Shown: positions 4,740 through 51,046 of the stretch, piece by piece
Layout of the letters: each line of letters starts with the position of its first letter
How positions within the stretch are numbered: position 1 is the stretch's first letter
From: Dimargaris cristalligena
Lineage: Eukaryota
DNA: 53,573 bases
Assembly (NCBI GenBank): GCA_003614675.1
Contig: ML002266.1
Location: forward strand, 1 to 53,573
Direction of reading: 5' to 3'
Position numbers and translations under genes: made by a program
Notes under the pieces: model-generated
What the model was told of the DNA's origin: nothing
What the model saw: the letters and a program-made list of their open reading frames with translations, nothing else
Databases searched by the model: none

Positions 4740-6063
4740 ATGCCGTTGGAAAAAATTCTCCGTCAGAACCAGGCCTGGGCTGCCTCGTTTAAGAAGGAGC
4801 ACCCCACCCTAGCCGCTCGTACCGCCCAGGGCCAAGCCCCCGCGATTCTTTGGTATGGTAAGTCCTGCTCAAACAGCTCCCTGCTTATTTACCCTGGCTG
4901 ACTATTAACCGCCGCCTCATTTGTGGCTTCCTTTCCCTCCGTTTCTTCCCGCAGGGGATTCTTTCGATGGTTTCCGAATGGAGAAGTGGCCTATGCTGCC
5001 ACCTCGCCCTTGTGTCTGTGTGCGTGTGGGTATATGTTGAACAGCAAACAGGTGCTTCTCCGCCCGGTAGGACAACCATGTTGTACCGTCCCGGTTGGTT
5101 TCGGAGGGAGGGAGGGCTGCGCTGGAGGAAAGTCGCTGGGAATTAATATTTTCCCCACGTGCGTAGCGGGGCCACTTATTGGCTGAGTCCATAATGTGGG
5201 AATCGTCCTTCCCTTGCCACTGGTGAGATTACTCCTACATATCTTAAGGTTTGGTGGAGAAAGGATTGAAGATGATAACCCAGCGCCTATCATTTGTTCT
5301 TAATTTCAGTCCAGAAGCAGGGTGGAAAGAGAGAGGGGGGGACCCTTACCTTAATACCAGCCCCACCACCTTCCTCTCGTTCTGACTCTCCCCTTTGGCA
5401 TGGTATCGAACTAACCCTGCATCGTCTATCCCAATTACTCTTACTATATCACTATTGACTACTCACTGGGTACTCCCAGGCTGTTCGGATTCCCGGGCCT
5501 CCCCCGAAGTCGTAGCGGACTGCACATTGGGCGACCTTTTTGTGCAGCGCAACATCGCCAATGTAGTGCACCGGGGCGACCCCAGCAGCATGTCCGTGCT
5601 CGAATACGCCATCCGCCACCTCGGTGTACAGCACGTGGTAGTCTGCGGCCACACCAAGTGTGGCGGCGTCCAAGCGGCGCTGGCCAACAAGTCGGTCGGG
5701 TCCTATTTAGACCCCTGGCTGGAAAAACTCAAGCGCCTCATTCCCCGTATCCCCCCGCCGTCCCCCCCTTCGCTGGCCTCTTCACCTGATGTTGCCTGCT
5801 GCCGCATTCCCGCCTCCGAGGCGGCTACGGCGGTGGGTTACGGCGAGTTGGAACGCCAGCGGGCCCTGATTGATTTGAATGTGTACCAATCGCTCTACGA
5901 AATCGCCCACTCCGAGGTGGTCCAGGCCCGTTGGGAAGAGAATGCCATACCACTCACTCTCCACGGATGGGTATACAATCTGGAAACCCTGGAGTTGGAA
6001 GATATGGCTGTGGAAGTGAATTCCCGCGAAATGGCCGATAAAATGTTGACCTCGTACTTGTAA
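4740..6063 (+). CDS. NCE103: Beta-class carbonic anhydrase, 233 aa, 2 exons
   Basis: Exon 1 4740-4857 (MPLEKILRQNQAWAASF...GQAPAILWY), intron 4858-5479 (GTAAGT...CAG), exon 2 5480-6063. Splicing restores WYGCSDSR. Also GDLFVQRNIAN, LEYAIRHLGV, VCGHTKCGG (Zn ligands C, H, C) and LHGWVYNL. Confidence 0.95.
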
Positions 6064-8628
6064 TTCACCCCCCTCCCCTTACTTCCCCCACCCCCTCTTC
6101 ATTCCTTTCCAACCAAGATATCCCCGCTTCTTCCCCAACTCCGCCCCATACCCAGTATTATGGTTTTTTGCCTGACACGTCCAGCCTCACCGTCGGCCGT
6201 GCAAAATTGTAAGGCAGCAAAAAACGACCAGTTGGATTGTAGATTATATACTTGGAAGTCATTGCCTCCGACTTCCGCTTTATTGGATTCATATGTTCAA
6301 TCGTTGTTCGAGTGCCGCTTATTATCAGGAGGTGCCCATCTATACATACATTTTTATACATCTATCATACACACTTATTCATACTCTCCCCTTGCACAAT
6401 GTGTTTGTACATTTGGAGGACGCGGGTGAGTTCTATTCCTTGCCTCCCTCGCCTTCACTCTTCTTCATAAACCAGCCGTCATTTGGGATCACCAGGCATG
6501 ATAGTTTTAATGACTACACTACAAGGTGTGGGTTCAAAGGAATAATAGGGCTGAATGAACTGGTGTCAGCGACTTGCTTCCACGGCTGTCACCTGTGTCG
6601 CTCCTTAATCCCACCCAAGAGTGTATACTCCAATATATCTATTTGGGGCCCACCTAGAGGGCTTCGTGGCACGCTACCTTGTATAGCAGGTATCCGCTGC
6701 TCTGTGAGGGTCGCACCAATGGCGTAGATGGCCGACTGTTGTGGAGTATTCAATCATCCGCCATTTACCGCCAACGGTACTTGATTCATTGGTATCGGAA
6801 GTATTCCACGGTTTGATTATAATGCCCCCTCCCCTACTCTCCTTTCCCCCCTACACCACCAATTCCATTCAGAACTATTTGTATGGGGGGTTTTCAATCA
6901 GCCAAGTTATAGTAGGATGGACGGTCCGCCGAATGAAGTTATGGAATGTAGGATATGATTTGGGAATACTCCGTATTAAACTATGCCTAGACCTAGAATA
7001 ATCTATACATATGGGAGAAGTTCATCCAAGCTGTATAACAAAAAATCCATTAGATTCGGCCAATATTACTAGTTAAAAATAACTTTCCCATATATTCTCC
7101 CATACACATATAATGCAAACCCTTATATAGCTGGGCTGAATTTCACCCATATATATATCAATTGCCAAGCCGAAAAATCCCAGATTATCATTCTAACCAC
7201 AAAGTGCCGTTGGGGCCTCATTTATTGCCTAAGTGGGCCAACTACTCTGGCCACCACTCCATCCACCTCCTCTTCCCCCTTTCTGCTAATCTGGGACCTC
7301 AGCCTAGTGGGCCCGTTCGAAGCATACACGGGAGCGGTACCACTACTTGTTCTCCATTGACTATTTTTTCACGTTGCTTGCTAGATTAGGTAAAGGACTG
7401 GGCGCGCGCGCTCAGCTGCTTTATTCGACCGCCATTTGCGAAGAATCCACGGTCTTCAAAAGGCATACGTTCGCTAACCTATATCTATAACTATTTCTTC
7501 CCTGGTAACCCTGGCTAGACCTTTTATAAATAGTCTAATGAATATATATACAATATTAGCTAACGATGTAAACTATACATTCCCCGAGACTCAAGGTATC
7601 TCTAACCTCTGGCCAAGATTCGCGATGATAGTGGGTCTAAGGTTACATTGCACTTTTCCTAAACTAATGTAGCCAAAATAGTTACAGTTAGCTACGGAAA
7701 AGGAATATTGCTAGCATGGCTATTAATATTCGTCAGTTTTTGAACATGTCGGGGTTTTAGGACGACGGGCTGTGCTTAATGGGGTAATTATTATTACTCC
7801 CAAAGTGAGAAATGCCCAGAAATATATTAGCAGACGCTGGCCGAGCCGAGGTCGAAGTTGTGGTTGATGGTTCTTTTTTATTGCTAGTTTGAATGACGCG
7901 GCGAATTATGCGAACCATTGTGGTGGTAACTTCTTGTCCTACCCTAGTGTCGGGTAGGGGAGCATTCCTAATTATCGAGTAAACAGGGAGAGAAAAAAAA
8001 CTGGAGGAGAGGGAGGAGGATATGTATATAAGTATAAATGTGGACATAACAATAAGCGACCAACAACTGATGTAGTTAATGTTAAACAAAAACATAATAA
8101 TAAAAAATAGCCAGAAAAAGGAGTGGAGGGAAGGCATATCTCACAATATGAGCACGAGTAGCTGCTACCGTATTGGTCTTGAAATGTACGGGTGTGTACC
8201 CAACAGGTACCAATGGCTGTCCCAAAGCTAAAGATCTGTGAACAAGAGGTGTTCTTGGCCTTGATTTTGTGGGGCTTTACAACGCACCCGCTCCCCACAA
8301 CCTTTACAGAACCTTTGATATTAATGGACATGTCGTTAGTCTGGGTTTACTTATAAATACACAGGCTATCGTCCTCTTTTATATACTCTTAAATATCTGT
8401 ATATACGGTTGATTGGTATACATCTTCCTTGCGTTTGAACGCCCAACCTGCTATTTTCCTCAAACCTATTTTACCATAATTTTCACTTCCTTCTCTATAC
8501 ATGTGCCATCTACTTTTTTTACGGCTTGAATAATCACCCTTAATTCAAACTCGACAGTTGCTCCTTTACGCCAATATCCCCCAGTTCTAGAATTGTAATA
8601 GTACATTTTTTGCTGAAATAAGCCGACC

Positions 8629-10698
8629 ATGTTGTCATTTTCACCCTTTGGCTATCTGGGAGCCGTCTTGCTTACCTATGTCTGCCTCGAAATAAGCCAC
8701 ACTCCCCCCGTTCAAGCTGAACTTTTTCGTCTGCCGCTTCGGTACGACTATCCCGACACCCGTTCTTCGTCCCCGACCAACACCAAATCCCCTTTCCTTT
8801 CGCCCCAGTGGCCTCCTCGGGCAGTGACTTCCTCTACGACGTCCTTAGCCGTCCCCGGTCCCATGACGGGGGGCGCCATGACCCGTTCTGTCTCCACCCC
8901 GACCCCCCACGCCCGCACGCCCACCGATGGTAGTGGAAGCGGTAGTAGTGAGGGCGACGGAAGTGAAGCCAGTCGGAAAAGTGGGGCTTCTTCCCTTTGG
9001 CCGTGGCCGGGGCTGGGTAGTACGCTATCGCTCCACCAACTTCCACAGTCCGTGTACAACTTGGTTACGGGGGGCTTATTAGCCCCCGCTTACTCGCCGT
9101 ACGACGAGTCTTCCACTTTCCGCGGGTCATTGGCGGACGTTATGGTCAATAGCGACCAGGCCCCTCACTACCGACTGGGGGATAGCCAGCCCTTCCGGCC
9201 CCCGTATGTGGAAATTCAATTCGACGGTATGGGCCGCGTATTCCGGTTGGCGGTGGATACCACCGTGAACGGATTGGTGCTGTTCGATGATATTCCATTA
9301 CCACCCGTCTCTTCCGCCTCCTCGTCTTATGCATCATCAGCCGCAGCGTCGTCGTCTTTTGCTTCAGAGCCGGTTTCACCCTCGTCGGCCTGGTCGCCGA
9401 ACTATACCCTATCGAGCTCCCTACACTCCTTGAGCCACCGGGGACGCCAGCGGCAAAATAAGCGGCACCAACAGCCGGGTGAAACCGTCAACCACTGGCT
9501 CAAACGGGTCTACCCTAAATGCCAACAACACCGGTGGAAACGCTGGTTGGCCGAGGGAAAGGCACAGTCCTCGTCGACGTTTATCTTCAAGGGCCAGGAA
9601 GTGGAGAGCAGTCCGTGTTACACCGTGGCCCTCCAGATGGAACGAACGGAAGTGTCCGCGGGGCCGGACCGTCGGTTCGATTCGAGTTACTGGCGGATAC
9701 CGAACGTGCCGGTGCATGTGATTAAAGACCGGCGGCGACTGGGTGGACCATTCGATACATTTGCGCTTGACGGTATTTTGGGACTGGGGTTGTCGAGGCA
9801 GGACCAAGTAGTGGTTGATAGTGAGGAGGCAGCGGGTAGGGATAATGGCAGCCACGGTACGGATACGACGGGAACATTGTTGGCCGCTCTATGTCGGAAT
9901 CCGGAACTAGTTTGGTCCACCCGTGCTCCGACGGCTGGGTCTGCGAGACGGGGGGAAGGGGGGATGGACAAGAACAACTCTAACCCCCCCTCGGCCGCCA
10001 ACCCGACTAACCGACTGGTTCCTTCGGTACGTTTCCGCCTTACGTCGGATAATCTCAGGGACCATCGGATTGAACTATGTGCCTACGACAATGAACCGAT
10101 TGCCAGCGGCAGTTCAACGGCACCCCAATCGCAAACCCAAGCCCAGTCTCAGCCGTCGTCATCATCGTCGGCCCCTATGACCATAGTTGGTGATGGGACC
10201 GAGCCCCAATCGACGGAGTTTACATGGTTCCCAGCCCTTACCTCACCCGGCATGGGTCCCCGCGGGGCTTGGCGCCTGGGCCCCGAATCCGACTTCCATC
10301 TCGAAGGCCTCTATTTTTTATCTAGTGCAACTCAGCTGGCATCGCCCCCGACGTTTGTGTTCAACAGTTTACTTCCCAAAGTGTTGGTGCCTAAGGGGCT
10401 CAAACATGAAGAATATGATGATGATGATGATGAGGAGGAGGAGGAGGAGGAGGATATGAATATAGATGGGCACCCCGAATCGACATCATTTCATCTAAAG
10501 GAGGCAAACTTGGTCACCCTGGTGAATGGTGAAAACTATAGTCTGGAGGATACGTACATGGGCCCACCTGATCAGCCTCTGGTGCTGCTGGGTCAACCGT
10601 TTTTACGCCAATACGAAGTGGTATTGCGGAATACCAAGGGTGGTCAGCCCGAGATTGGAATCGGTCGGGTTCGCTCGACCCGTCCCCCTTCTATTTAA
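8629..10698 (+). CDS. Secreted pepsin-like (A1) aspartic protease homolog with degenerate catalytic motifs, 689 aa
   Basis: Hydrophobic N-terminal signal. Pepsin-fold landmarks FRLPL, FRLAVDTT (first DTG site), DGILGLG, FVFNSLLP (second DSG site) and LLGQPFLRQYEVVL...IGIG, separated by long Ser/Pro-rich and acidic insertions. Confidence 0.75.
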   Translation: MLSFSPFGYLGAVLLTYVCLEISHTPPVQAELFRLPLRYDYPDTRSSSPTNTKSPFLSPQWPPRAVTSSTTSLAVPGPMTGGAMTRSVSTPTPHARTPTDGSGSGSSEGDGSEASRKSGASSLWPWPGLGSTLSLHQLPQSVYNLVTGGLLAPAYSPYDESSTFRGSLADVMVNSDQAPHYRLGDSQPFRPPYVEIQFDGMGRVFRLAVDTTVNGLVLFDDIPLPPVSSASSSYASSAAASSSFASEPVSPSSAWSPNYTLSSSLHSLSHRGRQRQNKRHQQPGETVNHWLKRVYPKCQQHRWKRWLAEGKAQSSSTFIFKGQEVESSPCYTVALQMERTEVSAGPDRRFDSSYWRIPNVPVHVIKDRRRLGGPFDTFALDGILGLGLSRQDQVVVDSEEAAGRDNGSHGTDTTGTLLAALCRNPELVWSTRAPTAGSARRGEGGMDKNNSNPPSAANPTNRLVPSVRFRLTSDNLRDHRIELCAYDNEPIASGSSTAPQSQTQAQSQPSSSSSAPMTIVGDGTEPQSTEFTWFPALTSPGMGPRGAWRLGPESDFHLEGLYFLSSATQLASPPTFVFNSLLPKVLVPKGLKHEEYDDDDDEEEEEEEDMNIDGHPESTSFHLKEANLVTLVNGENYSLEDTYMGPPDQPLVLLGQPFLRQYEVVLRNTKGGQPEIGIGRVRSTRPPSI

Positions 10699-11280
10699 TA
10701 TAGGGGAGATATACTTGTAGTTTAGTGGGGTTGCAATAATATGGCTTACACCCCGTTGGAAGAGGGTTATAGTGCCGCTCAATTTTGATGGTGATACTGA
10801 TCCTATACACCTAATAAAGTACTCGTATCGACCTCAGTGGCTATTCGTTCTTGGCTACTTCTTGGAAAATATTGTAAAGTTGGGTGAGAAGGGGGGGGGA
10901 CTGAGAGATGCGAAAACTAAACATTTCACCTACTAACCGAAAACGTATACTAGACATTGGACCCGGGTGGGTGGTTGGAACACTCGGTAGAAGAGAGGAA
11001 AGGAACACCGGCCTTCCAAATCCCCCCTCCCCACCCTCCGCTTGTATCTCCCGGCATCTATTCTCGTTATTTCTATTTCTTTTCTCAGGTTTGCCAATTA
11101 TCCTCGACACCCATCGGATTGCTGCATTTGGCTTTTCGCTGACCCACCAACCTTGTGACATCCTCCATTGGGGCCCGCTCAGCCGAACCCCTCTCTAATT
11201 TCCGAATTCGGCGCATGTTACCCTCCCCCTGCACACATCAATACCGCATCCACTACCCATAATATTTTACTGCCTCCACC

Positions 11281-12120
11281 ATGGCTGAAGCCCAAGACAA
11301 TAGCGTGATTCCCGAAGCACCTCCGCTTGTCTTTGACCCGAATCGGGAACGCTTCCAAATCGAACTGGAATTCCTCCAATGTTTGGCTAACCCATGGTAC
11401 CTTAATCGTAAGTCCAAGGCTACAGTGTAATAAGAACCGTACAAACGTGGGGTTTGGTGCGGGCTAGTCGCGCCTCTCCCCTCCATTAGTGGGGACGTTT
11501 TAAGTACAAATACAATATTACACTTACAAAGTCCCAACTTAGCCGTCCTTTGTCCCCATGAACCTGTATCGACTCCTCTAACGCTGACCTCACCTCGTCT
11601 CCCCATTTATTAATGGTTCGGTTGCTCCTCCGCCATAGACCTCGGTCAGCTCCAGTACTTCAAAGACCCCCAATTCGTGGCCTATCTCAATTACCTTCAA
11701 TACTGGAAAAAGCCCGAATACGCCAAGTTCATCATGTAAGCTAAATAACGCTTCACCCATCATGTTGCCAACATCACCTATATAGATAAGCCATCCCCAC
11801 ACGCATCTACACCGCGTTTTTGGCATACGGATTTTTTTAGGAAACATCGCCCTTGGATTATTTATTTATATTTGATCTTAAAAATTAACACTAATATTAT
11901 ACCAAATGTGTTTGTATTCATCTTCTATAGTTATCCCCATTCCCTCTATTTCCTTGACTTGCTCCAACACGCCGAATTCCGGGAGGCCATCGCCAAACAG
12001 GATGTGGCCACTTATATTCACCAAAAGCAGTACTTCCACTGGCTCTTCTTCCGCCGGGGCAAGCCCCTATCCGAGAATCCCGATGAAGAAGAACCCTCGC
12101 AGCCAGTCCCCAAGCCATAA
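11281..12120 (+). CDS. MED31: Mediator of RNA polymerase II transcription subunit 31, 137 aa, 3 exons
   Basis: Exons 11281-11407, 11639-11735 and 11931-12120 with GTAAGT/TAG and GTAAGC/TAG introns. The spliced product RFQIELEFLQCLANPWYLNHL...FVAYLNYLQYWKKPEYAKFIIYPHSLYFLDLLQHAEFR is the Med31/Soh1 signature. Confidence 0.97.
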
Positions 12121-13931
12121 TGGCCTGTTTCATTCTTTTTATATTTTTATAGAACCCCTCCAAGTAGGGATAGCATTCCGTTAAGGAGGGGGTAGGAAAT
12201 ACCCAATCTCCTCTTCCCTCTCCTTCTTTTATGATTTAAATTGCCAATTGTAGCATTGGGGGGTATACTAAACAATCGCCGCCGAGAGAGCCACTAAATG
12301 AATTGCTAATGTACATTAAACTGTCATGTAAAACTGAAGTTCGGAGGTTTTTCCTTTCTTGGATGGTTAATCCGAAATTGCATATATATGTTGAGCCCTT
12401 ATAGTAATAACCCACTGGCATATATTTGGTGCTGTAATCGCTTTGGTTTGATTCAATGATGTGGATGTTTCCAAATAATGGCGCATCTCCCCAGGGGTCT
12501 CGCTTTCAATTGCTAAACCCTGGTTAATAAACAGCTGCTTGCTGCAAGGTACCTGTGGTCTTTTCTTCAGAATGGTTCATTATTTTCAAAAACCATGGAT
12601 GTCGGCAACGCCCTTGCTAGTTCTTAGTGTTAGGTACCTACACTTCACCCCCCCCTCCCGCATTTATTTTTCCGTGTATCTAACTCGAGCTCGACAAGGT
12701 CCAATCCTCCATCTCATCCGAACTGCATGTCCACGGTGGTCTACCGCCTGGGACACTGTTATAAGGTGTAAAAGGGAACAGCCAGCCAAAGTCTAATCAA
12801 AGGCCCATAATTGAATATATAAGAGAAATCCGATGCAGCTGTATAACGAACCATCCGTTTGATGGGGCAGGTCTTACAGGTGAAAAAGAAAAACCCCGTC
12901 GGTTTGCCCATACATATAAATGTATATATATATATCGCTTGAAAGTGTGTACAGTTGCGGACTCTCATCCTTATATTTATGGATTGTCCAAGCCCCTCTT
13001 TGCAGTTCTTTTCAAAAGCAAACCGATGCTATTAAGCTTTGGTTTTTCAGCCTTGGTATACTGCCATCAAGGAAACTGGCAAAACTCGTACATACAACCG
13101 GAATGCATATTTGCGCCCATCCATGTAATGACAAGTTAAAAAACCTCAATGTTAATTACCCCGGGGAATAGACCAATATAAACAAGACGCGATGCGCTTG
13201 TCAGGTTACGTTTACCTTTAGCTCACTTATAGTATCGTAGCAATCTAACGGAATCTGCGGCTGCTCATTGTTTTTGCGGACTGAACTGGTGACGACCACA
13301 ATTTATCGGTGGCTAGCCAACCACATGCATTAAAGAACTAAAAAATAAGGCTTAATTTTACAGGGGGAATGGGAGCATAGATAACTTATAAAATACTTAA
13401 ATAAACCAAATATGTCGTTAATGGCTCACGTCGATCATCGCGTTCATTGTTGAAAATAATATAGTAGTATAATATGAGATACTCATGAACCCCAAGAACG
13501 CATCAGCCAAATAATTTAACTCGTTAATAATAATCTGACATCGCCCCAACTACTCTGGACAGCAGGATAAATAAACCATAAATATAACGTTCTTACATAA
13601 TACCAACCTTTATGTCAGCAATTATATATCATCCATCTTTAGTACAGCCAGTGAGTGGCAGTCGAGAATATATTACTGCCACCCGCTTAAATGTTTATAT
13701 ATGCTCGATAGTAGCGGAAAGACCATAAAAACGTGGAAATATCCTTGTATATAATTACAATATAGGTGGGTTATAGTGTTGGCCACGGAGCCCAACTAAG
13801 AGTGAGCATAGTAGTAATGATAAGTAGTTGATGTGCAAATATACCTTAAGGCAAATTCCAAAAAACAAAACAGCCGAGGGCCAGCATAATTACTTTAGAC
13901 GGAGAATTTGGGAAAACGAAAAACCCTTTCA

Positions 13932-15479
13932 CTATACCATCAAGTCCAGTTGATCATCGAGAACTTCGAGAGATAGCCAAAGAGACTCATTTAACCCGTA
14001 TATGTCTTGGAGTAATATCTCCGCAGTCGAACGGTGCACTCGGATGGCCAATTTGAGGTTGCCTTCGGAGCCGCGGCGTAGGTGCACCATTCCACCAGCC
14101 GTGAAATCCTTGAGCGTAGGGGGCTGCGTATAAGAGTCCGGTTTTAATACGAGGCATTTGTTCTTGGCCGTCATCTATCCCAGTGCACCGACCAAACAAC
14201 AGTGCCTTTTAGATAACTCAGACATTTTATCCTTGTCATAAGAATTGGACGGGCCAAATTCCCAGCTCAAAAGGACCATGCACATCAATAAATTGGAGAA
14301 GTTTCTCTCCGCATTGGTTAGCGTTAACGCTTTCATTAGTGTATCCAATTCGCTTTATTGGCCGGTGGTAGCAAGGACCGCACTGATGCTGACCATCCCT
14401 TGTTTCCAGATTAGGTCAGTAGTGCCCTCGGACCACCCCCGCCCAAAGTTGTTAACGGGGTATTTGCTTATCGTTTCATTTGCGTATTTCTTCGAAACAT
14501 CCCCGTAAGACATGTCTAATGTCTTATACGTAAGGCTTTGCGGGATCATAGAAAGTTCGTCTGCGTTCAATGCTGGCAGAGTATTAAGCAACGGGAATAG
14601 GGCTCGCCTTTGTGGTCTGTTTAACCCAGTATAGTATATATACGCCCATTCCGCCTTAACGAGATTCCTTCGGTCCGGTTTGGATAGGCATTCCAGGGAT
14701 TCCTCAGAATAAGTCGGCAGACTCGGATGTCTATCAATTTTAACTCTATAGCCGTCGCTATTTTCCCAGACGGCGGTCATGAGTACGCCCATTGGCTGCA
14801 ACGGAAAAAGTAGGGTTAAATCAACCAAATTGGCAATATATATAGTGCTTATTACAGGCTTAATATCTCGTGCCTTTCCAGCGGCCGATTATAAAGGGAT
14901 GTACACGCCAGCGAATAGCCGTGATTAAAAATAGAGATTAGTCGATGGGCGTAGAAACGGAAATTGGGTCAATAAACCCATACGCTAACCATATGTGTAC
15001 AACTCGAAATGCCAGCCTTCGAAATAGAGGGGCCAGTCCCGATAATGACTAGTCGAATGACAGCGCGGCTGGGGGAATGTTTTATTCGAAACGGGTAGAC
15101 TTACTTTGAAAAAATTCTTAGTGTCTTGGTGTTTCTTGAAGACATCATATAATTGGCCATCCACTTGGGAAAGTCTCCAACGGTCATCAAATGATATTTT
15201 GTCCATTATTAGATGGATAAGTTCGGGAGGGAGTTTTGTCAAATGGTGAACGGATTAGCTTTGAGAAGCCTCGGCATGCGCATTGAAAACTTTCCTGCGT
15301 GTAGGTTGCAATCTAAATATAATTTTGTCGTCGTCGTCATCATCATCGTCTGATGTATCGTCGTTAGAATAATCGTCATAGTCTGATATCCCATCTATAT
15401 CCACACATTGAGGGCGACTAGCTACACTGTAGGCCGGGGCTAGACCTAACAAAGTGGCGGGAATAAGGTACAACTTCAT
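13932..15479 (-). pseudogene. Secreted F-box-like protein gene (412 codons, 2 exons) interrupted by three in-frame stops
   Basis: ATG at 15479 (MKLYLIPATLLGLAPAYSVAS signal peptide), exon 1 15479-15105, phase-0 intron 15104-14796 (GTAAGT...TTTAAC...TTGCAG), exon 2 14795-13932. Four listed ORFs join into one reading frame with TAA at 15257-15255, TAA at 14357-14355 and TAG at 14177-14175. F-box-like LTKLPPELIHLIMDKISFDDRWRLSQVD starts at 15242. Confidence 0.75.
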
Positions 15480-16513
15480 TGCCAACAGACGGCAAACCGA
15501 TGAAGTGAACAGGAGACGAGCCTGAAAAATAAATAAATTGAATTGGCCAAACACGAGCTAATACTAATAGCGGAATACAGCAGGGAAATCAGCTACCGGC
15601 TAGAGTGAGGTAGGCCGGGCGGCAGTAGGCGTGGTGGAAAAAACAATGGGGGGAGAAAGGGCAGTGTAAATATAGGAGACGGATACTGGGGAGGCCTAGG
15701 CAGGGAGGGTGCCAGTTGAGCCCGTCGGGAGAAGTCGAGGCCATGCTCAACCAATGTCTGCTATTTAGTAGATATTTTTTTTTGGCACACGAATACATAC
15801 CCTACGTATGTGCCTTGCAGCAGAGAAAAAGGGCGGTCGTTCCACCAAAATATAATGGGGGGATATTTTCAATCCAGGTCGTTGGACTGAGTTCTCTATT
15901 CATATGTTAACGAATACAAATATACAACGCGGGTAACACAGAAATGGCCAAGTTGTGGCTAAACAACGCTGTGGTGTTACTTCGTGCAACCCTGCGCGGT
16001 GAGTGGCATTCTCTTTCCAGGGTGACCATAGGCTTAATTGTGAGGCAGTGGGGCTAGGAATAACCACCGCAATAAGGTCCGCACCATGAATCGCCTCAGT
16101 ACGGGATTTAAGCCGCACAAAAATTAATTGACATAGGGGATCGGGGCACACAGAAGTGACTAATAAGTCCACTAGACGTGGCGTTCGGCAGTCGTTCGTT
16201 GTCACCCTTGGGCTATGAGAAACTGGCCCAAACGAAACCAACGTCCAGCCGAGATTTCACGATACCTATTCTAGTGCCCCAGGTCAATAGTCCCCCTATG
16301 GTGACTCTCCCTTATGTTATTTTGGTGGCGGTGGTTGAGGTTAGTCAAAAAAAAGGGGAGGGAGTAAAAAACCCCCCGTTACCTAACGCTGACCGAGGTT
16401 GCCATATCGGTTCGCAGCGCTCTTCGTATTTCCCTCTTCAATCACCCAGTAAGACAATGGTATGACGGATATATAACCCTTTTTCAGTGTGGTGTGATAT
16501 ATACCCCCGAGCA

Positions 16514-17230
16514 ATGGCACTGCCGGTCACTTTGCTTCTCACTTTCCTATTGTCGGGAGTGTCACCAACCCAGCCCCTATGTAACTCCCCATTATATATT
16601 ACGCATAGCTACGGGAATCCAAAGGGTGCCATTTATAAGAATAGGCCATACCAGACTGTATCCCTCTTCCTCTAGACGGAAACTTAGGAACGGTTGGGTG
16701 CTGCTATACGCCAAGCACACCAATGGGCTCGCCACGATTAAGCCATCACTCCACCACCTCATGAAGCCGTTTACAAAACCCGTTATTTCACCCCGAAAAT
16801 CACATGCCCTTAGTCATTTCCAGCCGCCTTGTTCATCTACACGCCCTCCCTACATTACCGCTATGTTTAACTAAACGAATTCCTTTATACTTGTTGACTA
16901 TAATACTGTAGGAATGACTATCGGTCATCGAACTTTTAGCCCACGATTATTGTTTCTTGAGCCACCATGTAAGCACATAATTGCCCTCTGAATGAGTAGA
17001 CGGGCTTCCCATATTGAGCTGAAGGGCAAATAAGAGGTCGGGCCTAATTTTCATCAGAACCATTGGCTAGCAGCATCACGGGTGTGCTGGCCTGAGTGTG
17101 CCTTTGTGATGCTCGCCCTACATCCCAATTTACTGTACATAGGGGTCTAGTTATGGAATAGCTGACATCTTGGCCAAATGGGCTGGGATGGTCATTTCTA
17201 ACTTCCGGCATTATCGACGGGGCTTCCTGA
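16514..17230 (+). pseudogene. Degraded relic resembling a secreted S28-family serine peptidase (PRCP/DPP7-like) N-terminus
   Basis: Collinear fragments: signal-like MALPVTLLLTFLLSGVSP (16514), YKTRYFTPKI (16772), HRTFSPRLLF (~16925), AFVML (~17100) and YGIADILAKWAGMVISNFRHYR (17152). These match in order the S28 motifs YF.Q..DHF, TF.QRY, PIF...GGEG and G....LA....A.V...EHRYYG. Stops, frameshifts and remnant splice sites lie between them. Confidence 0.4.
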
Positions 17231-17900
17231 TGGAGGCATTGCCTATGTATCTGTAATAATTTTCTCGGAGTGATAGCTGTGTTATCCCATCCCCTCCTCT
17301 TTTTGCCGTTGGGGGGCTGGGGCTGAATAACTATGGCACGGGCAGATAAATTATCCCCAGAGGTGCCATTTGAAAGAACTCTCTAATATACTATACATTT
17401 CCCTAGAGAATAACTACATCACCTGAAGGACTTTAGCATTCCCTTGCCGCGTTGTTTACCACCATTGTATGGCATCTATCTACACTACATGCCACTGGGG
17501 TTGGGTGTCTTGCTATATTCAGCCTAGTTAAATAGAACTTATTGCCCCAGGCGAGTCTGTGTCTTATAGGGTAAACATAATGTAAAATATTATGTATCAT
17601 TTACTCATATTGGCGTACAGCCTGAGGTGAATTATGAGTAATATGAGGCTGATATTACCGCAAGGTATATTATACAAGATAAGTGCAATCTAGCTGTGCA
17701 CTATTAAGTCCATTTGAAACAACTGATTTTATGGGTGTAAGGGGCTTCTCACCTAGTTCCCCATACGCATTACAATCAATTATTATTATTTTTACAGTTA
17801 AGTTAAATTTCACCTATATTTATTTCTATATAATAGTGCTGTGACTCGATCTATATATAAATGAAGAGAGGGCACCTCCACTCTACTATATAAACGTACT

Positions 17901-18470
<570 letters not shown>

Positions 18471-19728
18471 TTAAACGGCAGAGTTGTTAGTGGTGGTGGT
18501 AGTGGGAGGAGGAGGGGGGGGTTGTTGATGACCCTGGGTGGCGGAACTTCAACAATTAAGGAAACACGGGAAGACGGAGTCGGAGTCGGAGCTGGAGGAG
18601 CGATGGAGGGATGTATAGGGGTAGTTAGTTAGTTCAAAGAGCGGAATCGAAAAGAGACGCGCTTGGGGTAGAATGATGGAGGGTGGAGGAGGTTAGAACC
18701 GCGGAATCTAAAAAGGTAATTGTAGGCAAACTGGGAAACACGAATATAATAAAATCCAGGTGTGTATGTTTAAGGAAATGTGCCTCATTGGAATCTAGGG
18801 GAAGCGGAATCACTTGGCATACAGCTGCCAGATAAAAATAAGTAAAGCATCCAGATGGGATGGCGTTAAGGCAGGCTGGTAGGCTTTTCGGAGGAATTGG
18901 AGGCCGCAGTCAATTTGGGGCGTGTCTGTGGTATATACAGCCTTAATTATACCAAGGTGACGTTGATTAGATGTAGGCCTCTATCCTCTCCTCCACCATT
19001 TGGGATCATTTCTGATGATACCCACCCTTATAGCTACAATAAATGGTCGACCAGAGAAGCTGGGTGGGATCATTTATATAAATCTACCATCTAAGAGAAA
19101 GGGGGTGCAAAAGCGACGTGGTTGAAACATGTCCTAGAGATATCAAAAATTATTAAATATATATATGTGTATATAGGACCACCGACTGCTTCAATACACC
19201 AATAAACAAACAGTGGGACATTATACCATAGGCAAACAACCGCCAGATCAAGTAAAGTAAGGAGAGGAGGGGGAGACAAGGCTTAGCAAGTGCTAGTAAG
19301 TAGTGGATGGACGAAAAGGACGAGAAGAAGAAAGACGAGAATCATCGCTGTTTGGGAGTGGACGGAGAGGGAAGGAATATTCATGAGAAACTGCTGACAA
19401 AAACCACAGACGCAGAGTACGAAGCAAAGAGACTACAGAAATAACACGCACACGCAGTTAAAAGAAAAGGTGACCAAAGGCAATCAACCGTGGATATCTA
19501 ACTACCCATTGAAATATATGTTCATAAACCAACAAAACTCTCCGAATTGAAGAAAGCGAGAGATACGAGATTTCGGAGAAGGCCAGCCGATAACAGCCTC
19601 CCCCCCATCAACTTTATAAAGGCGATACTGCTCAATCAATATATCTATATCCATATATTTAGATATCTGATTACTTGCCCTTTTTAGTCCAGCACTTTTG
19701 CCCCATCTAACTACACCACCTTACCGAA

Positions 19729-21709
19729 CTAGTTTCGCACGTAGAACAGGACGTATGGTAGACAATCATCGGACCCCTGCGTAATGACAGTTTCGTGGGC
19801 AATCCGCTTAATGGCAGTATCGTCAATATTCAGCCACTGCGACTTGGACTGCAAAATGTCGCAGGTGTAGTGACCGCCCGTCAAATGACGGCCGTGGTGG
19901 TACACGACAGCCAGCAGGTCATACTGGATCGGTTTCTTGGGCTGCCGGTGGTGCGGGGGGAAGAGGGTGGAGGGTAGGACCAAGTGATGGCCGTATTCGA
20001 GGGGCTTCTGCAGCTTCTGGGCGCCATTGGCGCTGGTGTATACGAACCGGTTGATGTGCAAAATAAGGACGGGGGGGAGTTCTTCCAGCTGGAGCTGCTT
20101 AGTGGCTTGGACGGTAAACCCGCGCGGGTCGGTGAAGCCCTCGAGCGTTTCGGGTTGAACCAGGTGGTTGAGCGCATCTTCGACCGTTTTGACGGCCGGT
20201 GGGCTGATGTCCAGGAGGAGGGATTGGAAAGGCTCGTAGGTGATGGAGTCCTTGGAACCTGGGCAGCGTAGTACTGACCGTTGTTTGCCACCGAAGATCT
20301 GGGTGATGGGCGAGTCGTTCGCGGCCACGGTACGAGTGCTCGACACGCGGTTCTTCTTGCCCACCTCCATCCAAGCGTAAGGGGTAGCAGCACCTGTGGC
20401 ACCATTGCCACCGTTAGTCGCCTCCGCTGCCGCGCCATTGGCGCTCTTCTGGGACCGGCCCACGGACATGAACTCGTCATGCAAGCCCTCCAATAGGAAT
20501 CCCATAAATTCCTGGGCATCTTCCTGCCGACCCCTCAATGAATCGAACTTCTTGAGGCTGCGGAGGGCATTGTAGACGTTTTCGGGGCTCAGCGGTTCAC
20601 CCACTTCATCGGCGGCGGTGCTGATGGGCAAAGGCTTACTCTCCCGGAATTCGTTGACAAAGGCCACTAGGGAATCGGTTAACGGGGTGGAGCTATTAAA
20701 GCTGTGGGTGCTGTGAGTCTCAATCTTTTTAAGGAGGTTAAAGAAGGGAGGGCAGAAGAGGAGGGCCTGGAGAATGGAGTTCATGAAGCACATGTTGCCA
20801 CTGTTGACCAGGCCACGCGGCTGAAGCGTGGTGCGCTGGAAAGAAGGGAGGAAATTGGCCAGTGTATCGGCAATGGACCGGAACCGGGGTGATCCGTTCA
20901 CTAGGCCATTGGAAGAATTCGCAGTAGCGCCACCATTGGGGGCGGTGGTTTTACGCGTAGGGGTAGTGGTAGCCGAGGAAGGCGCATCGGTAGCCGCCGA
21001 AGAATTGACAGTGCCAGACTCGGGGGTTACATTAGCTTTGCCGGCTTCGCGGGCCTTGACTAGGTCGGCCCATGATTTGGTAGTCGAGGGTTTGGTGCCG
21101 TCTTGCGAAGCGCTTGGCTTAGCAGGGGTGGCTTGAGGGACAGGCCCGGTTTGGGGGGCGGCCTTGGCTGGGGCCGGGGTAGCTGTGGTAGCGGTAACTG
21201 TGGATTTTTCGGATGTCTAAAAAAGTGGCGTTACAAAGGCGGGATCAATTCAAGTAAGTATCGGTGGGTTAGATCCAGGACTTAAGATTTGGACATGGAT
21301 GTTTGATACACGCCTGAGAAAATAACCTATATTAAAGAAATGGGCTAAATAAATATACATATTATCGGCCTACGCCATAGATAAGTACGGTATCTCGCGG
21401 TAGGGAGAGTACACTTACCGAGAGGGCCAGGGGAGTGGGCTCGGGTTTCTTTTCGGTGGCTGCCGGAGTCGTCGCCACAACCTTGGGACTGGGCTGTGAT
21501 GGTTTGACGGGCAGGGGTGTCGTTACAGGTACTTTCGGCCTTATTGGGGCGGCCTCGGCTGGTTTGATATCATGTTCAGGGGCAGTCTCGGAGACTTTGC
21601 GGGCTTGGCGGGCCTGTTTCCAGTAGCCGGTTGGGACCTCGGATGAACACCACGGTAGCTTGAGGGTCGATTCCTGAACCTCCAGGTCATCGAAGGAGTA
21701 TGGCGACAT
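19729..21709 (-). CDS. UBP3: Ubiquitin-specific protease Ubp3/USP10 family, ~592 aa, 2 exons
   Basis: Exon 1 21709-21419, phase-0 intron 21418-21217 (GTAAGT...TAG), exon 2 21216-19729. KSWADLVK motif, Cys box PRGLVNSGNMCFMNSILQ, GRQEDAQEF, WMEVGKKN, His box YHHG...GGHY and WLNIDD. The exact start is less certain. Confidence 0.93.
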
Positions 21710-22590
21710 GGTGTCGAGTCAAAAACAGACTATGCACTAGTAATGGACTAGAGATCGATATACAGGGAATGGGAAAAGTGGGTCGACAGATGGATAAACT
21801 GGACGTGGGTGTATGCGTATATATATATATATATATGTATATGCGTGTGTGTGTGTATGCGTTTGCAGATGAACGTAGAACTGCTAAACGAGAGGTTAAA
21901 CGAGGAAACCGATTGAAAGAGACGGAGGAATGGTAACGAAACAGAGAGTGACTTTAATACAAGACGAAAACAGCGGAAACAAGAATAGGGCGGCTAGGGA
22001 GAGTGTTGGTCAGGTTATAGTAGTTGAAGGTGGCCGAATAGTCCAGCGAGGAGGAGAATGGAAGGAATCGGACTTGGACAGCTAAACCAAATAAAGGGCC
22101 ATGTACCATAAAACTAAGGGAAAAACGCAACGGGTCACTTGGGCACTACTATACTACTATACTACTACTACCACTACTATAAGCGAAAAAGCGGCACAGA
22201 GAGAGAACCCGGCTAACGTGGCTGCTTGTAGGTCAGTCTAGTGGTGGGAGGGAGGGAATTTCAAGAGATATCATTATGATATGGGAGGCAGGGAAATCTA
22301 GGCTGGCCGGTGGGAGAAAAGCCTGTCCATTGCATAATACTTCGGCTCTAACCCAGAATGCCTCAAACTAGCAGAGCACTACCACTCTATTACTCAGTAA
22401 TTGTGGACCCCGTTGTCCCAGTCCCGCTTCCTTAACTCGTCGAAGCCTTCCATGGGAACTACTCCTCTTCCAAACTAAGTTCTCCAAGGCCACATCCACC
22501 GTACCTTTGCTACTTCTTCGGCCCCTCTTACCATATTCCCTATTGTGACCACCCGATTCACCCTGTGATTGAGTTTCCCCCGACGACCGA

Positions 22591-24066
22591 ATGCCACCAC
22601 CTCCGCCTACCCCTATACCCACAGTGGCCCTATTCCATGGCCTTGCCTACATCACCTATGCATATTACACACTAGTCATAACCACTGCCTTGGCCTTGTT
22701 ACCCCTCCTGTCCGTCCGACAGCTCCTTCTACATGGCAAGACCCGATCCGACGAAGCTAAACCTCCTGCCCGTGAAACTCATTCAGTTATCCACCGCTTC
22801 TGGTCGAGGTTCCAACGGTGCACGGTTCCCAAGCACTGGTTTGCCCATTTTTACCTGGTTGGCGCGGTTTGGAACGCCTCCCTAATATGCATTATTCTCA
22901 AATACTTCGCTCTCAGCTCCAATGCCGCCAACATCGACGATGGCTCGCCCATGTATTACGTCTCCGGGTTGGCCAAGTGGCTGTCGGCGGAATTTCAATG
23001 GACGTTCACTGTGGCACCACCACCACCACCCGGTAGCTTACCAAACGGGCTAACCCATAGTTTATTTTGGGACTGGCTATCAAACGCCGTAGCTATAGGC
23101 CTGGATTACGCCGCCGTACTGACGACAGGCTCTGTCCCAACCCCGATTCTACAACGGCTGGATATTGCGGCTCTATCCGTCCCCACAGTATCCGTCATTT
23201 TGCTACTCCTATTTCAAATCCACCTCATGCGGCGCGTCATGGAATGCTATTTCATGCAGCGTCCGTCAAACTCGCAAATGCACATAGGACACTACCTACT
23301 GGGACTATCGTTTTACATTGTCACGGTGCCCACTCTGCTGCTCGATACCCTTCGTTTGACCCTATGGGACGCTAGTATGCCCGCGTTAACGGCCACCACC
23401 AGTCCCTTCCCCCCACCTCTCCCCGATTCATTTGGATCCCAGGCGGTGCGGATGCTATATCCCCTTCTGGCATTCTTTTTATATGGTGTAGCATCGTACC
23501 ATCAATCCCGCTGCCACTATATCCTCGCCCAGCTCCGCACCCCTTCCGAGCCAGTCGCCCCGACAGCCCCCAAAGAAGTTAGAAAAGGCAAACGCCCCCA
23601 GTTCCCTCAGTCGGCTCTTACTGAGACCCATGGCAAGTCGTCGGTGGACGCCAACAAAGGTCGCAGCACTTCTGCGGTCTACCGAATTCCCGCTGGCGAT
23701 TGGTTTACCGGGATCGAATGTCCCCATTACTATGCCGAAATTCTGATTTATCTCTCACTTACTTTCATGGCCGTGCCGTGGCTGGCTACCACCGTAGAGC
23801 CTGCGACGGAAAACTTCACGCAACTCGCCGCTAGCCCCTCTACGTCGGTGATGACATTATCCCCAGCGGCAGCCATGCCGGAGCACTTGGTCAGCTATTT
23901 ATGGCGCCTAACCACCCCAAAACCGGGTCTTGGCTTGTTATTACTTAATACCTGGAATTTGGTGAATCTGGGCATTTCGGCCTGGTCCACCCATGTCTGG
24001 TACCAACGAAAATTCAAGTCAGAGTTTCCAACGGGGCGGTGGATCCTAATTCCGTATGTGTTTTAG
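22591..24066 (+). CDS. DFG10: Polyprenol/polyprenal reductase (steroid 5-alpha-reductase family, Dfg10/SRD5A3), 491 aa
   Basis: Multi-pass membrane ORF with HGKT, TVPKHWFAHFY, HLMRRVMEC, SQMHIGHYLLGLSFY, HQSRCHYILAQLR, YRIPAGDWF...CPHYYAEILIY and THVWYQRKF...RWILIPYVF. Divergent from UBP3 across 881 bp. Confidence 0.92.
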   Translation: MPPPPPTPIPTVALFHGLAYITYAYYTLVITTALALLPLLSVRQLLLHGKTRSDEAKPPARETHSVIHRFWSRFQRCTVPKHWFAHFYLVGAVWNASLICIILKYFALSSNAANIDDGSPMYYVSGLAKWLSAEFQWTFTVAPPPPPGSLPNGLTHSLFWDWLSNAVAIGLDYAAVLTTGSVPTPILQRLDIAALSVPTVSVILLLLFQIHLMRRVMECYFMQRPSNSQMHIGHYLLGLSFYIVTVPTLLLDTLRLTLWDASMPALTATTSPFPPPLPDSFGSQAVRMLYPLLAFFLYGVASYHQSRCHYILAQLRTPSEPVAPTAPKEVRKGKRPQFPQSALTETHGKSSVDANKGRSTSAVYRIPAGDWFTGIECPHYYAEILIYLSLTFMAVPWLATTVEPATENFTQLAASPSTSVMTLSPAAAMPEHLVSYLWRLTTPKPGLGLLLLNTWNLVNLGISAWSTHVWYQRKFKSEFPTGRWILIPYVF

Positions 24067-37460: not shown

Positions 37461-37859
37461 GGTGGGCCTCGCATCACTCCCGGGTACTTGTTATCGCCTA
37501 TTCTTCTCCCATCACCTATATATAGTATATGGACTTTTTTGTGCTTGTTCTCTCTGTATATCTCTGGCTTTCCGTGTCCTTCTCTCCAACCTGCCTTTCT
37601 ATTCCTCCGCTCTATATGTTTAGTGTGTCGACATATCTCTTCCTTACTTGACTCTGTATATGCATGCATACAATCTTCCAACCATAGACCTGTATAAATA
37701 TAGCTCCCGAAACCTCCCCCTGCCTGCCTCCTTTCTTTCTCTAGAATTTTATTTATTTAATTCCTTGACCCTCTGTTTATGTGCCCCACTGTATAACTCC
37801 TTCTGTACTTTTGTTAGCGCACCTAGTCTTGTCTATATCACCCTCTCCCCATACATACT

Positions 37860-37895
<36 letters not shown>

Positions 37896-37903
37896 TACCT
37901 ACA

Positions 37904-50293: not shown

Positions 50294-51046
50294 TTAACAA
50301 TACTCAGTGATTTTTAGCCAGTCAATGTAGGCATAGTAGGCGCTGGCAATGTTCCAGTCCACTACCCCGGCCCAAAAGCTATTTTGCGATCCATCCCATA
50401 CGCCCATGCGCAAGGTATTTGCCTGGGCGGGGTACGGTTTGCTGGTTCCCCGGGGCAGGGTCCGCACCAGGGCCCCGTTCACGAACCACTGGACATGCTG
50501 GGGCGTAAACTCAATGGCATAGCGCAGAAACCCGTCGGTCGCCCCCTGTGCGGAGTGGTAGCCCGGCAATTCATCGCCCGCCACCCGCTGACCGTCCACG
50601 AAATACATGGACTGCACCCGGTGGGCGTCCATGCCGACCCATTCCAAATCCAGCTCGTCTTTGGGGGTGGCGCCCTGCATGATGAAGGCGGTCACGACTC
50701 CGGAAGTGGGGCCGGCCTTAATGAGGGCCTCGATCCGGCCGCTGCGGATGGGCTTGGGGTACACTACGGTGGTGCCCCCGCAGGCTTGGGTGAGTCGCCA
50801 AACCATGGCGCCGTTTTCAATGTAGGCATTTTCGGGACACCAGTCAACGCGGAAATCTTTCATTTCGTCGGCAGAGTTGAAGTTCCACTCCTTGGTGGAA
50901 CAGACGGACTGCGCTACAGTGGGCTGGAATACGGAAAGAAGGAGGAGGGCTTGTAGAGCCAGGGTCACCAGCCGGAGAAGACGGGGTGGAGATGGTGCCG
51001 CTAGGGTGCGCTGCGTAAGCGGCGGTGGCGTAGAGTTTGGGCGCAT
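50294..51046 (-). CDS. Secreted glycoside hydrolase family 16 (Crh-like transglycosylase/glucanase), 250 aa
   Basis: ATG at 51046, hydrophobic signal LLRLVTLALQALLLLSVFQPTVA, SGVVTAFI, catalytic DELDLEWVG (ExDxE), YAIEFTP...WFVNGALVRTL, YP and GVWDG. Confidence 0.92.
   Translation of the reverse strand: MRPNSTPPPLTQRTLAAPSPPRLLRLVTLALQALLLLSVFQPTVAQSVCSTKEWNFNSADEMKDFRVDWCPENAYIENGAMVWRLTQACGGTTVVYPKPIRSGRIEALIKAGPTSGVVTAFIMQGATPKDELDLEWVGMDAHRVQSMYFVDGQRVAGDELPGYHSAQGATDGFLRYAIEFTPQHVQWFVNGALVRTLPRGTSKPYPAQANTLRMGVWDGSQNSFWAGVVDWNIASAYYAYIDWLKITEYC

Follow-up and report, generated by a model that had tools for sequence, protein, structure and literature searches.

Agrobacterium VirF and Legionella AnkB are exported F-box effectors, and viruses, too, make use of exported F-box proteins. 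In published reports, RipG/GALA of Ralstonia are described as bacterial exported F-box effectors (PMC4617103), SSGP-71 of the Hessian fly Mayetiola destructor as proteins combining an F-box with leucine-rich repeats and reported to interact with wheat Skp proteins (PMC4617103), the same insect as possessing hundreds of diversified effector genes that encode signal peptides (PMC7330099), and the Dimargaritales as fungi parasitizing Mucoromycota and some Ascomycota by means of appressorium and haustorium (PMC9866270). The ways in which haustorial mycoparasites manipulate the fungi that they live on are poorly understood. For bacteria and one insect, the use of exported F-box proteins is well established. 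The locus leading to this family starts at position 15479 on the minus strand of a 53,573-nucleotide stretch of Dimargaris cristalligena DNA (contig ML002266.1 of assembly GCA_003614675.1, positions 1 to 53,573), which was analyzed as a whole and is referred to as the window. With good probability, it represents a nonsense-disabled and probably recently inactivated copy of a multigene family found only in D. cristalligena, the members of which combine a signal-peptide-like start, an F-box-like motif and a helical domain.

An earlier note, made from the letters of the window, had described a signal start, an Asp-rich tract, the basic patch FRLQPTRRKVF and an F-box-like pattern in one exon, with a stop separating the two modules. 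All of these pieces are present in the translation of the minus strand, where the ATG at 15479 starts a 125-codon exon 1 (15479..15105) followed by a GTAAGT donor at 15104; the quoted F-box-like pattern LTKLPPELIHLIMDKISFDDRWRLSQVD..L corresponds to codons 80-110, and the separating stop is the TAA at codon 75 (15255-57), downstream of which exon 1 encodes LTKLPPELIHLIMDKISFDDRWRLSQVDGQLYDVFKKHQDTKNFFK (all coordinates are compiled in Table 1). In its frame, exon 1 contains one stop where 7.3 are expected and the five others have 7-11; for the 287 codons of the C-terminal domain, there are two where 15.1 are expected and the others have 7-18. Because these are far fewer stops than in the five other frames, the reading frame is real and far from chance. 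The basic patch FRLQPTRRKVF, in turn, is not kept in the paralogs of the family alignment.

Joining of this exon to a domain of about 287 codons, as also proposed in the earlier note, holds with respect to the reading frame, but the TTGCAG acceptor at 14796 is probably located inside coding sequence, and two stops that had not been mentioned interrupt the domain. An acceptor at 14796 would make a phase-0 junction. Immediately before this site, the frame encodes ..LVDLTLLFPLQ, which can be aligned with coding sequence in five paralogs (..RVLFPMQPMD.., ..KLLPVQ..), more precisely 14813..14796 (LLFPLQ) with residues of P0004, P0012, P0017, P0018 and P0036, and tblastn alignments with P0004 and P0012 extend up to 14831 and 14834, respectively. 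Further upstream, the AG at 14875-14874 is the first after CTAAT/TTAAT branch-like sites and is in frame, while a second in-frame AG ends at 14859. Since codons upstream of 14796 align with coding residues of the paralogs, the acceptors at 14874 or 14859 fit better than the one at 14796. Hence, the intron is taken as likely spanning 15104..14874, which adds 26 linker codons, with 14859 and 14796 kept as alternative acceptors. The sequence TTT CCG TTG CAG itself (F P L Q; 14796-14813, minus strand) has the look of a strong acceptor, since CAG follows a run of pyrimidines, yet in five paralogs the aligned motif LFP[MLV]Q is coding. The site equivalent to TTGCAG appears to be used in the annotated models of some family members, for example P0009 as well as P0008, which begins here with MQPMDAIMAHAW and thereby matches PMGVLMTAVW of the window copy; the family may have alternative acceptors, or some of the annotated models may be wrong.

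When 1.84 billion cluster representatives were searched exhaustively with phmmer, 19 hits reached E<=0.001, 17 of which are true relatives (E 1.1e-30 to 3.2e-4), all named Dimargaris cristalligena and deriving from two annotated assemblies, whereas no true relative from outside this species was found among these representatives at the same threshold. An eighteenth member, P0036, was obtained from a profile search recovering at least three family members. Word-indexed protein searches with the C-terminal part (query P0002, against proteins of near length) and with P0001 (against longer proteins) did not give any relatives, and paralogs were not found inside the window. The family thus defined appears to be restricted to one species and multicopy, and effector families are often lineage-restricted and present in many copies. 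Two of the phmmer hits were set aside as compositional matches, namely P0006, a 2611-residue Ala-rich repeat protein matching in 27 stretches, and P0020, an abalone proline-rich protein.

The earlier note had named paralogs lacking the signal peptide, or starting downstream of it, as evidence that would speak against its proposal. In at least one annotation, however, 11 of the 18 paralog loci open with M[KR]xY..TLL[GST]LAL..H....[SG][RH]P[QKH]P, and 11 loci carry the part order of the window copy, that is, signal-like start, spacer, LPxE[LI] motif, linker and C-terminal domain, in uninterrupted annotated proteins; the remaining seven models may simply lack exon 1. These data support the assignment of signal-like start, F-box-like motif and C-terminal domain to one gene. 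The architecture put forward in the earlier note is consequently genuine and family-wide, although in the window copy it is broken by stops. Intact members comprise 290-490 residues and are built from the signal-like start ending in a conserved RPQP, a fast-evolving acidic/polar spacer, the F-box-like motif of 40-50 residues, a short linker and the helical domain of about 250 residues. Mean pairwise identity amounts to 46% in the start, 13% in the spacer, 23% in the F-box-like part and 28% in the C-terminal domain, so that conservation in the family is highest over about the first 25 residues and lowest in the spacer. As to the genomic setting of the paralogs, one assembly has several of them on contigs of only about 2.9-7.5 kb. 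In the case of P0012, P0027 and P0028, one annotation fuses the family member with the gene preceding it, the product of which has 126 residues and likewise opens with a signal-peptide-like sequence, while the other annotation has them as two neighboring genes.

The start of the window copy consists of one basic residue followed by 19 residues without charge, among them a hydrophobic core with a mean Kyte-Doolittle value of 1.92 over 12 residues, and aligns with the conserved start of 11 paralogs. The call of a signal was made heuristically from composition and conservation, looking for a basic n-region, an h-region of about 7-15 residues and small residues before the cleavage site, and these features are found in the window copy and the 11 paralog loci alike. 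All twelve show one K/R within the first 2-4 residues, an uncharged run of 14-25 residues and a best 12-residue Kyte-Doolittle mean of 1.6-2.7; the hydrophobic run is followed by [SAG]-x-[SG] and then R/H-P. Shape, short core and conservation favor a cleaved signal rather than a membrane anchor, and it is rather probable that the intact proteins enter the secretory pathway. If the proteins were delivered into a host, the conserved RPQP following the signal-like start would be a candidate processing or uptake motif.

For the F-box-like motif, the hidden Markov model check suggested in the earlier note was decided in part only, as P0004 scores 25.0 bits with Pfam PF00646 and is thereby above the cutoff of 20.5, while the window copy remains below it at 19.4 bits (E 9.6e-4, profile positions 1-27 of 43) and an F-box fold was not recovered in the structure searches. 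With PF12937, the window copy scores 14.8 bits. Weaker hits of 12-18 bits (PF00646 or PF12937) at the same aligned place are obtained for P0026, P0034, P0024 and P0010, and eight loci are labeled 'F-box domain-containing protein' in UniRef. In alignment A3, P and E are invariant, and all ten aligned sequences agree with the consensus L..LP.EL...I...L...DL..LS.....L; the family motif reads LPxE[LI]..I...L...[DS]L..LS.....L. The usual F-box has a Trp at the ..CKRW.. position, where all aligned members have L, M or Y instead. A profile of the 53 motif positions ranks two Skp2 F-box chains and the FBXW7 F-box 1-3 of 177,635 PDB sequences, in register, with E-values of 0.31-0.52 that are not significant alone. 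Against the same PDB sequences, the full-family profile gave no significant match, with MCM2 at E 0.087 via the acidic spacer and FBXW7 at E 0.86. When residues 62-130 of P0004 were submitted to the language-model search of the ESM Atlas, the best named cluster was F-box (0.93) and the ten best named ones all were F-box families, a match which, according to the tool's own warning, serves as a lead only. An AlphaFold2 model of the motif alone shows three helices (8-17, 20-39 and 41-57) at a predicted local distance difference test (pLDDT) value of 86.8. On this evidence, which is moderate and at the sequence level, the motif is called F-box-like; the chances that it is a working F-box binding Skp1 are about even.

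As stated in the earlier note, the C-terminal domain does not belong to a recognizable family, with neither a Pfam family for the window copy or the paralogs nor a match to a known fold in the searches made, the latter referring to the whole-protein model of P0004. This AlphaFold2 model, calculated with a 19-row family alignment, has a mean pLDDT of 66.6, with block means of 62-94 over about residues 190-430, and predicts a mostly helical domain with a small sheet around the conserved ..PKLAIRVRRS... Foldseek gave no match at E<=0.001, the best structure in a wide VIA-align search was Pex8 at background level (Z 5.7, root-mean-square deviation 13.7), and the best ESM Atlas value for the first 146 residues of the domain, 0.80, is noise.

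The window copy carries three internal stops (15255-57, 14355-57 and 14175-77) and is closed by a TAG-TGA pair 12 codons before the end of the colinear paralogs. Over the locus, it was compared with contigs of runs X1-X3 and, from another study, of run X5. The X1-X3 contigs are identical to the window, while the X5 contig, which covers the whole locus, shows ten differences, none of them at a stop. Accordingly, the three internal stops are the same in the contigs of all four runs and both studies, and the positions of the TAG-TGA pair do not differ in any run compared. In the column of the 14355-57 TAA, the paralogs have F, I, Y, L or H, being colinear on both sides, and in that of the 14175-77 TAG they have F (M in one). 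Past the TAG-TGA pair, the paralogs go on for 14 more residues, the window sequence KGFSFSQILRLK plus TAA equals their tails in length and has GF in common with them, and tblastn alignments with P0004 and P0034 pass through the stop pair, reaching 13902 and 13905, respectively. Hence, the terminal pair is likewise probably premature, although an early end is also seen in P0003, the closest paralog.

With conservation of at least 70% as the criterion, the family has 52 conserved columns, of which 44 (85%) are retained in the window copy, compared with 71% to 100% in the annotated paralogs. A frameshift is not present in the about 440 codons of the copy. Because family residues are kept as in intact members, it is the stops that mark the copy as dead. 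The four coding differences between window and X5 all are non-synonymous (V64I, E86D and, in exon 2, D151G and R240H), and five more differences are located within the 309-base stretch between donor and TTGCAG. Unconstrained drift of a recently disabled gene would be consistent with these data, four changes proving little. Taken together, the locus is most likely a nonsense-disabled young pseudogene of the D. cristalligena family, and most likely no full-length protein is made from it.

Some further features of the altered sites are worth recording. Three of the four TAA/TAG stops (14175-14177, 14355-14357 and 13932-13934) coincide with aromatic positions (F or Y) of the paralogs; passage through a Tyr codon, one step from a stop, would explain this, the alternative being chance. 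At 13890-13934 (minus strand), Pro-Pro-Pro in the paralog tail (..EGFPPPRPSSQQ) corresponds to Ser-Phe-Ser in the window, as if via C-to-T changes. A signature of hypermutation resembling repeat-induced point mutation was not detected, with observed/expected ratios of 1.01-1.05 for CpG and 1.02-1.07 for CpA in the segments starting at 13001 and 14001. Short collinear patches from other contigs, with 80-95% identity, cover conserved segments such as ..KLAIRVHRSTAE.., as is expected if paralogs are present elsewhere in the genome.

For the intact members, a function can be proposed in which the proteins would be secreted from a haustorium-forming parasite, the F-box-like motif would subsequently bind host Skp1, and the C-terminal domain would pick host proteins for ubiquitination, in the manner of the exported F-box effectors of bacteria and Hessian fly; the window copy would then have fallen victim to the turnover of genes that is typical of such families. 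An export signal and an F-box on one parasite protein are predicted together in P0004, P0024, P0034, P0026 and P0010, while in the window copy a stop separates the export signal from the F-box-like part. The whole chain, ending with a family that reaches the host cytoplasm and acts there as substitute substrate receptors on host Skp1-cullin-F-box (SCF) ligases, is proposed by analogy and appears doubtful. The same low confidence applies to the more specific picture of private Dimargaris adaptors that might be delivered from haustoria into the cytoplasm of the host mould, dock to host Skp1 and mark host proteins for destruction.

Several observations weigh against a disabled copy of a family of secreted F-box-like proteins. 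The window copy keeps the family residues as well as intact members do, and with only four coding differences the case for relaxed constraint is weak. Moreover, the signal was judged from composition and conservation alone, and seven of the 18 paralog models, beginning at or after the exon-2 boundary, are without the N-terminal part. Only one of the 11 signal-bearing paralogs is over the Pfam F-box threshold and six are without a Pfam F-box hit at E<1, the Skp2 and FBXW7 profile matches fall short of significance on their own, and the motif-only model matched F-box structures neither in Foldseek (best E 2.1, unrelated) nor in VIA-align (best Z 4.2; a Cdc4 fragment at rank 34 with Z 3.5, within noise). 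A locus that is still functional, be it via readthrough, RNA editing, unrecognized introns or a variant code, or with only the 74-codon upstream frame (signal and acidic tract) as product, would be in line with the intact frame over about 440 codons, the 85% of family-conserved columns kept and the internal stops being unchanged in contigs from two studies. Nevertheless, this is very improbable, as three to five separate bypass events would be needed and all four coding differences between runs change the amino acid. A variant genetic code was rejected, since TAA or TAG closes all six open reading frames checked in the window, and in three of them, the UCH, steroid dehydrogenase-like and GH16 genes, the Pfam domain extends to or nearly to the last residue before the stop; the organism therefore reads these codons as stops. 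Introns skipping the stops at 14355-57 and 14175-77 were rejected as well, both being inside colinear conserved blocks, and there is no AG between the TAA at 15255-57 and the F-box-like motif, so that a canonical GT-AG intron cannot excise this stop while retaining the motif. Sequencing or assembly error at the stops was rejected from the comparison of the window with the contigs of X1-X3 and X5.

With the nonsense-disabled copy retained as the preferred reading of the locus, the alternatives for the family concern the place and mode of its action. The proteins may be secreted but have in LPxEL a degenerate helical segment that has lost, or never had, the ability to bind Skp1, and would act outside cells or by another mechanism. 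This is somewhat unlikely: the scarcity of Pfam hits, with one paralog passing the threshold, the L, M or Y in place of the usual Trp in all aligned members and the failure of Foldseek and VIA-align to recover an F-box fold would agree with it, but the weak hits share register and place in the architecture, the profile ranks the F-boxes of Skp2 and FBXW7 1-3, the language-model search gives F-box clusters for the ten best named hits, and the invariant P and E are kept together with the hydrophobic spacing in a part where paralogs are only 23% identical. Less likely still is a family acting inside the parasite, with the hydrophobic start as membrane anchor or organelle address and a cytosolic F-box working with the SCF of Dimargaris itself, that is, a membrane-tethered adaptor. 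Here, it counts that the usual place of action of F-box proteins is the cytosol or nucleus of the producing cell, that F-box families expand and decay in many eukaryotes without a link to parasitism and that export of the present family is so far predicted only. However, the start has a single basic residue, then an uncharged run of 14-25 residues with a core of about 12, and then small residues and R/H-P. This arrangement is more in keeping with a cleaved signal than with a 20-residue anchor that has a cytosolic C-terminus. Restriction to one species, many copies and fast divergence outside the signal also speak against a role inside the parasite.

Table 1. Coordinates of the parts of the minus-strand locus and of Pfam-matched genes elsewhere in the window.
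Feature	Position	Strand	Codons, basis or remark
Signal-peptide-like start MKLYLIPATLLGLAPAYSVAS, then RPQ	15417..15479	-	codons 1-21
Asp-rich tract, in variable spacer	15327..15383	-	codons 33-51, translation
Basic patch FRLQPTRRKVF	15285..15317	-	codons 55-65, translation
In-frame TAA in spacer between signal/acidic part and F-box-like motif	15255..15257	-	codon 75
F-box-like motif LTKLPPELIHLIMDKISFDDRWRLSQVDGQLYDVF..	15105..15242	-	codons 80-125; Pfam hit below the cutoff, in register with the F-box hits of the paralogs
Intron, GTAAGT donor 15104, likely acceptor AG 14875-14874 (alternatives: 14859, TTGCAG at 14796)	14874..15104	-	
Probable linker codons ARDIKPVISTIYIANLVDLTLLFPLQ joining F-box-like motif to C-terminal domain	14796..14873	-	tblastn and alignment with paralogs
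C-terminal domain, family-specific, mostly helical	13935..14795	-	287 codons
In-frame TAA in conserved block ..SISAVLATTGQ[stop]SELDTL	14355..14357	-	
In-frame TAG in conserved block ..VGALG[stop]MTAKNKC	14175..14177	-	
TAG-TGA pair closing the frame	13929..13934	-	
12 further codons KGFSFSQILRLK and TAA, colinear with paralog tails (..KYREGFPPPRPSSQQ)	13890..13928	-	
Beta-carbonic anhydrase	5386-6063		Pfam
UCH ubiquitin hydrolase	19729-21216		Pfam
Steroid 5-alpha-reductase-like protein	22573-24066		Pfam
GH16 glycoside hydrolase	50294-51124		Pfam

In the window, the locus is alone in about 9 kb (about 10700-19700), where the only other frame of at least 150 codons is an unmatched one of 168 codons at 16368-16874. 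It lies between a 693-codon open reading frame and the UCH ubiquitin hydrolase gene. The former (8617-10698, plus strand) is uninterrupted, has a hydrophobic start, Ser/Pro-rich stretches and the acidic run DDDDDEEEEEEED, and did not give a Pfam family at E<=0.001. Farther away, a velvet-domain gene (37769-40057, plus strand; PF11754, E 1.2e-36) with a long Pro/Gln/His-rich tail is found in the most GC-rich stretch of the window (0.61 at 38001-40000).

In the full-text literature searched, neither a secreted fungal F-box effector nor a paper on a Dimargaris F-box protein was found, most subscription journals being outside the coverage so that absence is not proof, and the term F-box is missing from the main text of a Kickxellomycotina comparative paper and of a zygomycete secretome paper. 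A comparative study of Ascomycota describes the link between F-box domains and eukaryotic pathogenicity as unclear (PMC8146833). If the proposed mechanism were true, no earlier effector family mimicking a ubiquitin ligase would be known from a fungus, nor from the parasitism of one fungus on another, as far as the literature searched shows. The window locus itself is most likely a dead copy, the worth of which is that of a pointer to the family, whereas the about 18 loci make up a short and concrete list for studying secretion and Skp1 binding, and the orphan domain may define new substrates.

When compared with known systems, the family shares with ordinary fungal FBXO-like proteins (PF00646/PF12937) an F-box near the N-terminus, a variable C-terminal domain and a weak, divergent F-box. 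These ordinary proteins are not known to have a signal peptide and act in the producing cell; the Dimargaris family differs from them by its conserved signal-peptide-like start and its occurrence in one species. In its layout, it resembles the RXLR proteins of oomycetes, a signal-peptide effector family with conserved N-terminus and divergent C-terminus: a conserved signal region is directly followed by a short motif (RPQP in Dimargaris), then by a variable acidic spacer and a divergent domain, and there are many paralogs including dead ones. However, RXLR or dEER motifs are not present in the Dimargaris family, the role of RPQP is putative, and Dimargaris is a mycoparasite among the zygomycetes. 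The proposed mechanism, a parasite-made F-box for host Skp1/SCF, is modeled on RipG/GALA, VirF and AnkB. These bacterial effectors depend on type III or IV secretion and have leucine-rich repeats or ankyrin repeats as partner domains, in contrast to the eukaryotic signal-like start in Dimargaris, and beyond the F-box there is no sequence relationship between them and the family.

Nearest in design, on the basis of analogy, appears to be SSGP-71. In this insect family, the C-terminal part is made of leucine-rich repeats, whereas the Dimargaris family has a helical domain without fold match; SSGP-71 is insect-made and injected into plants, whereas Dimargaris is a fungus parasitizing fungi; and binding to host Skp is reported for the former, while it is proposed from sequence for the latter. 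SSGP-71 proteins themselves carry a signal peptide. Both families belong to a eukaryotic parasite, have the F-box near the N-terminus followed by another domain (target-binding in SSGP-71), and are large, diversified and lineage-specific.

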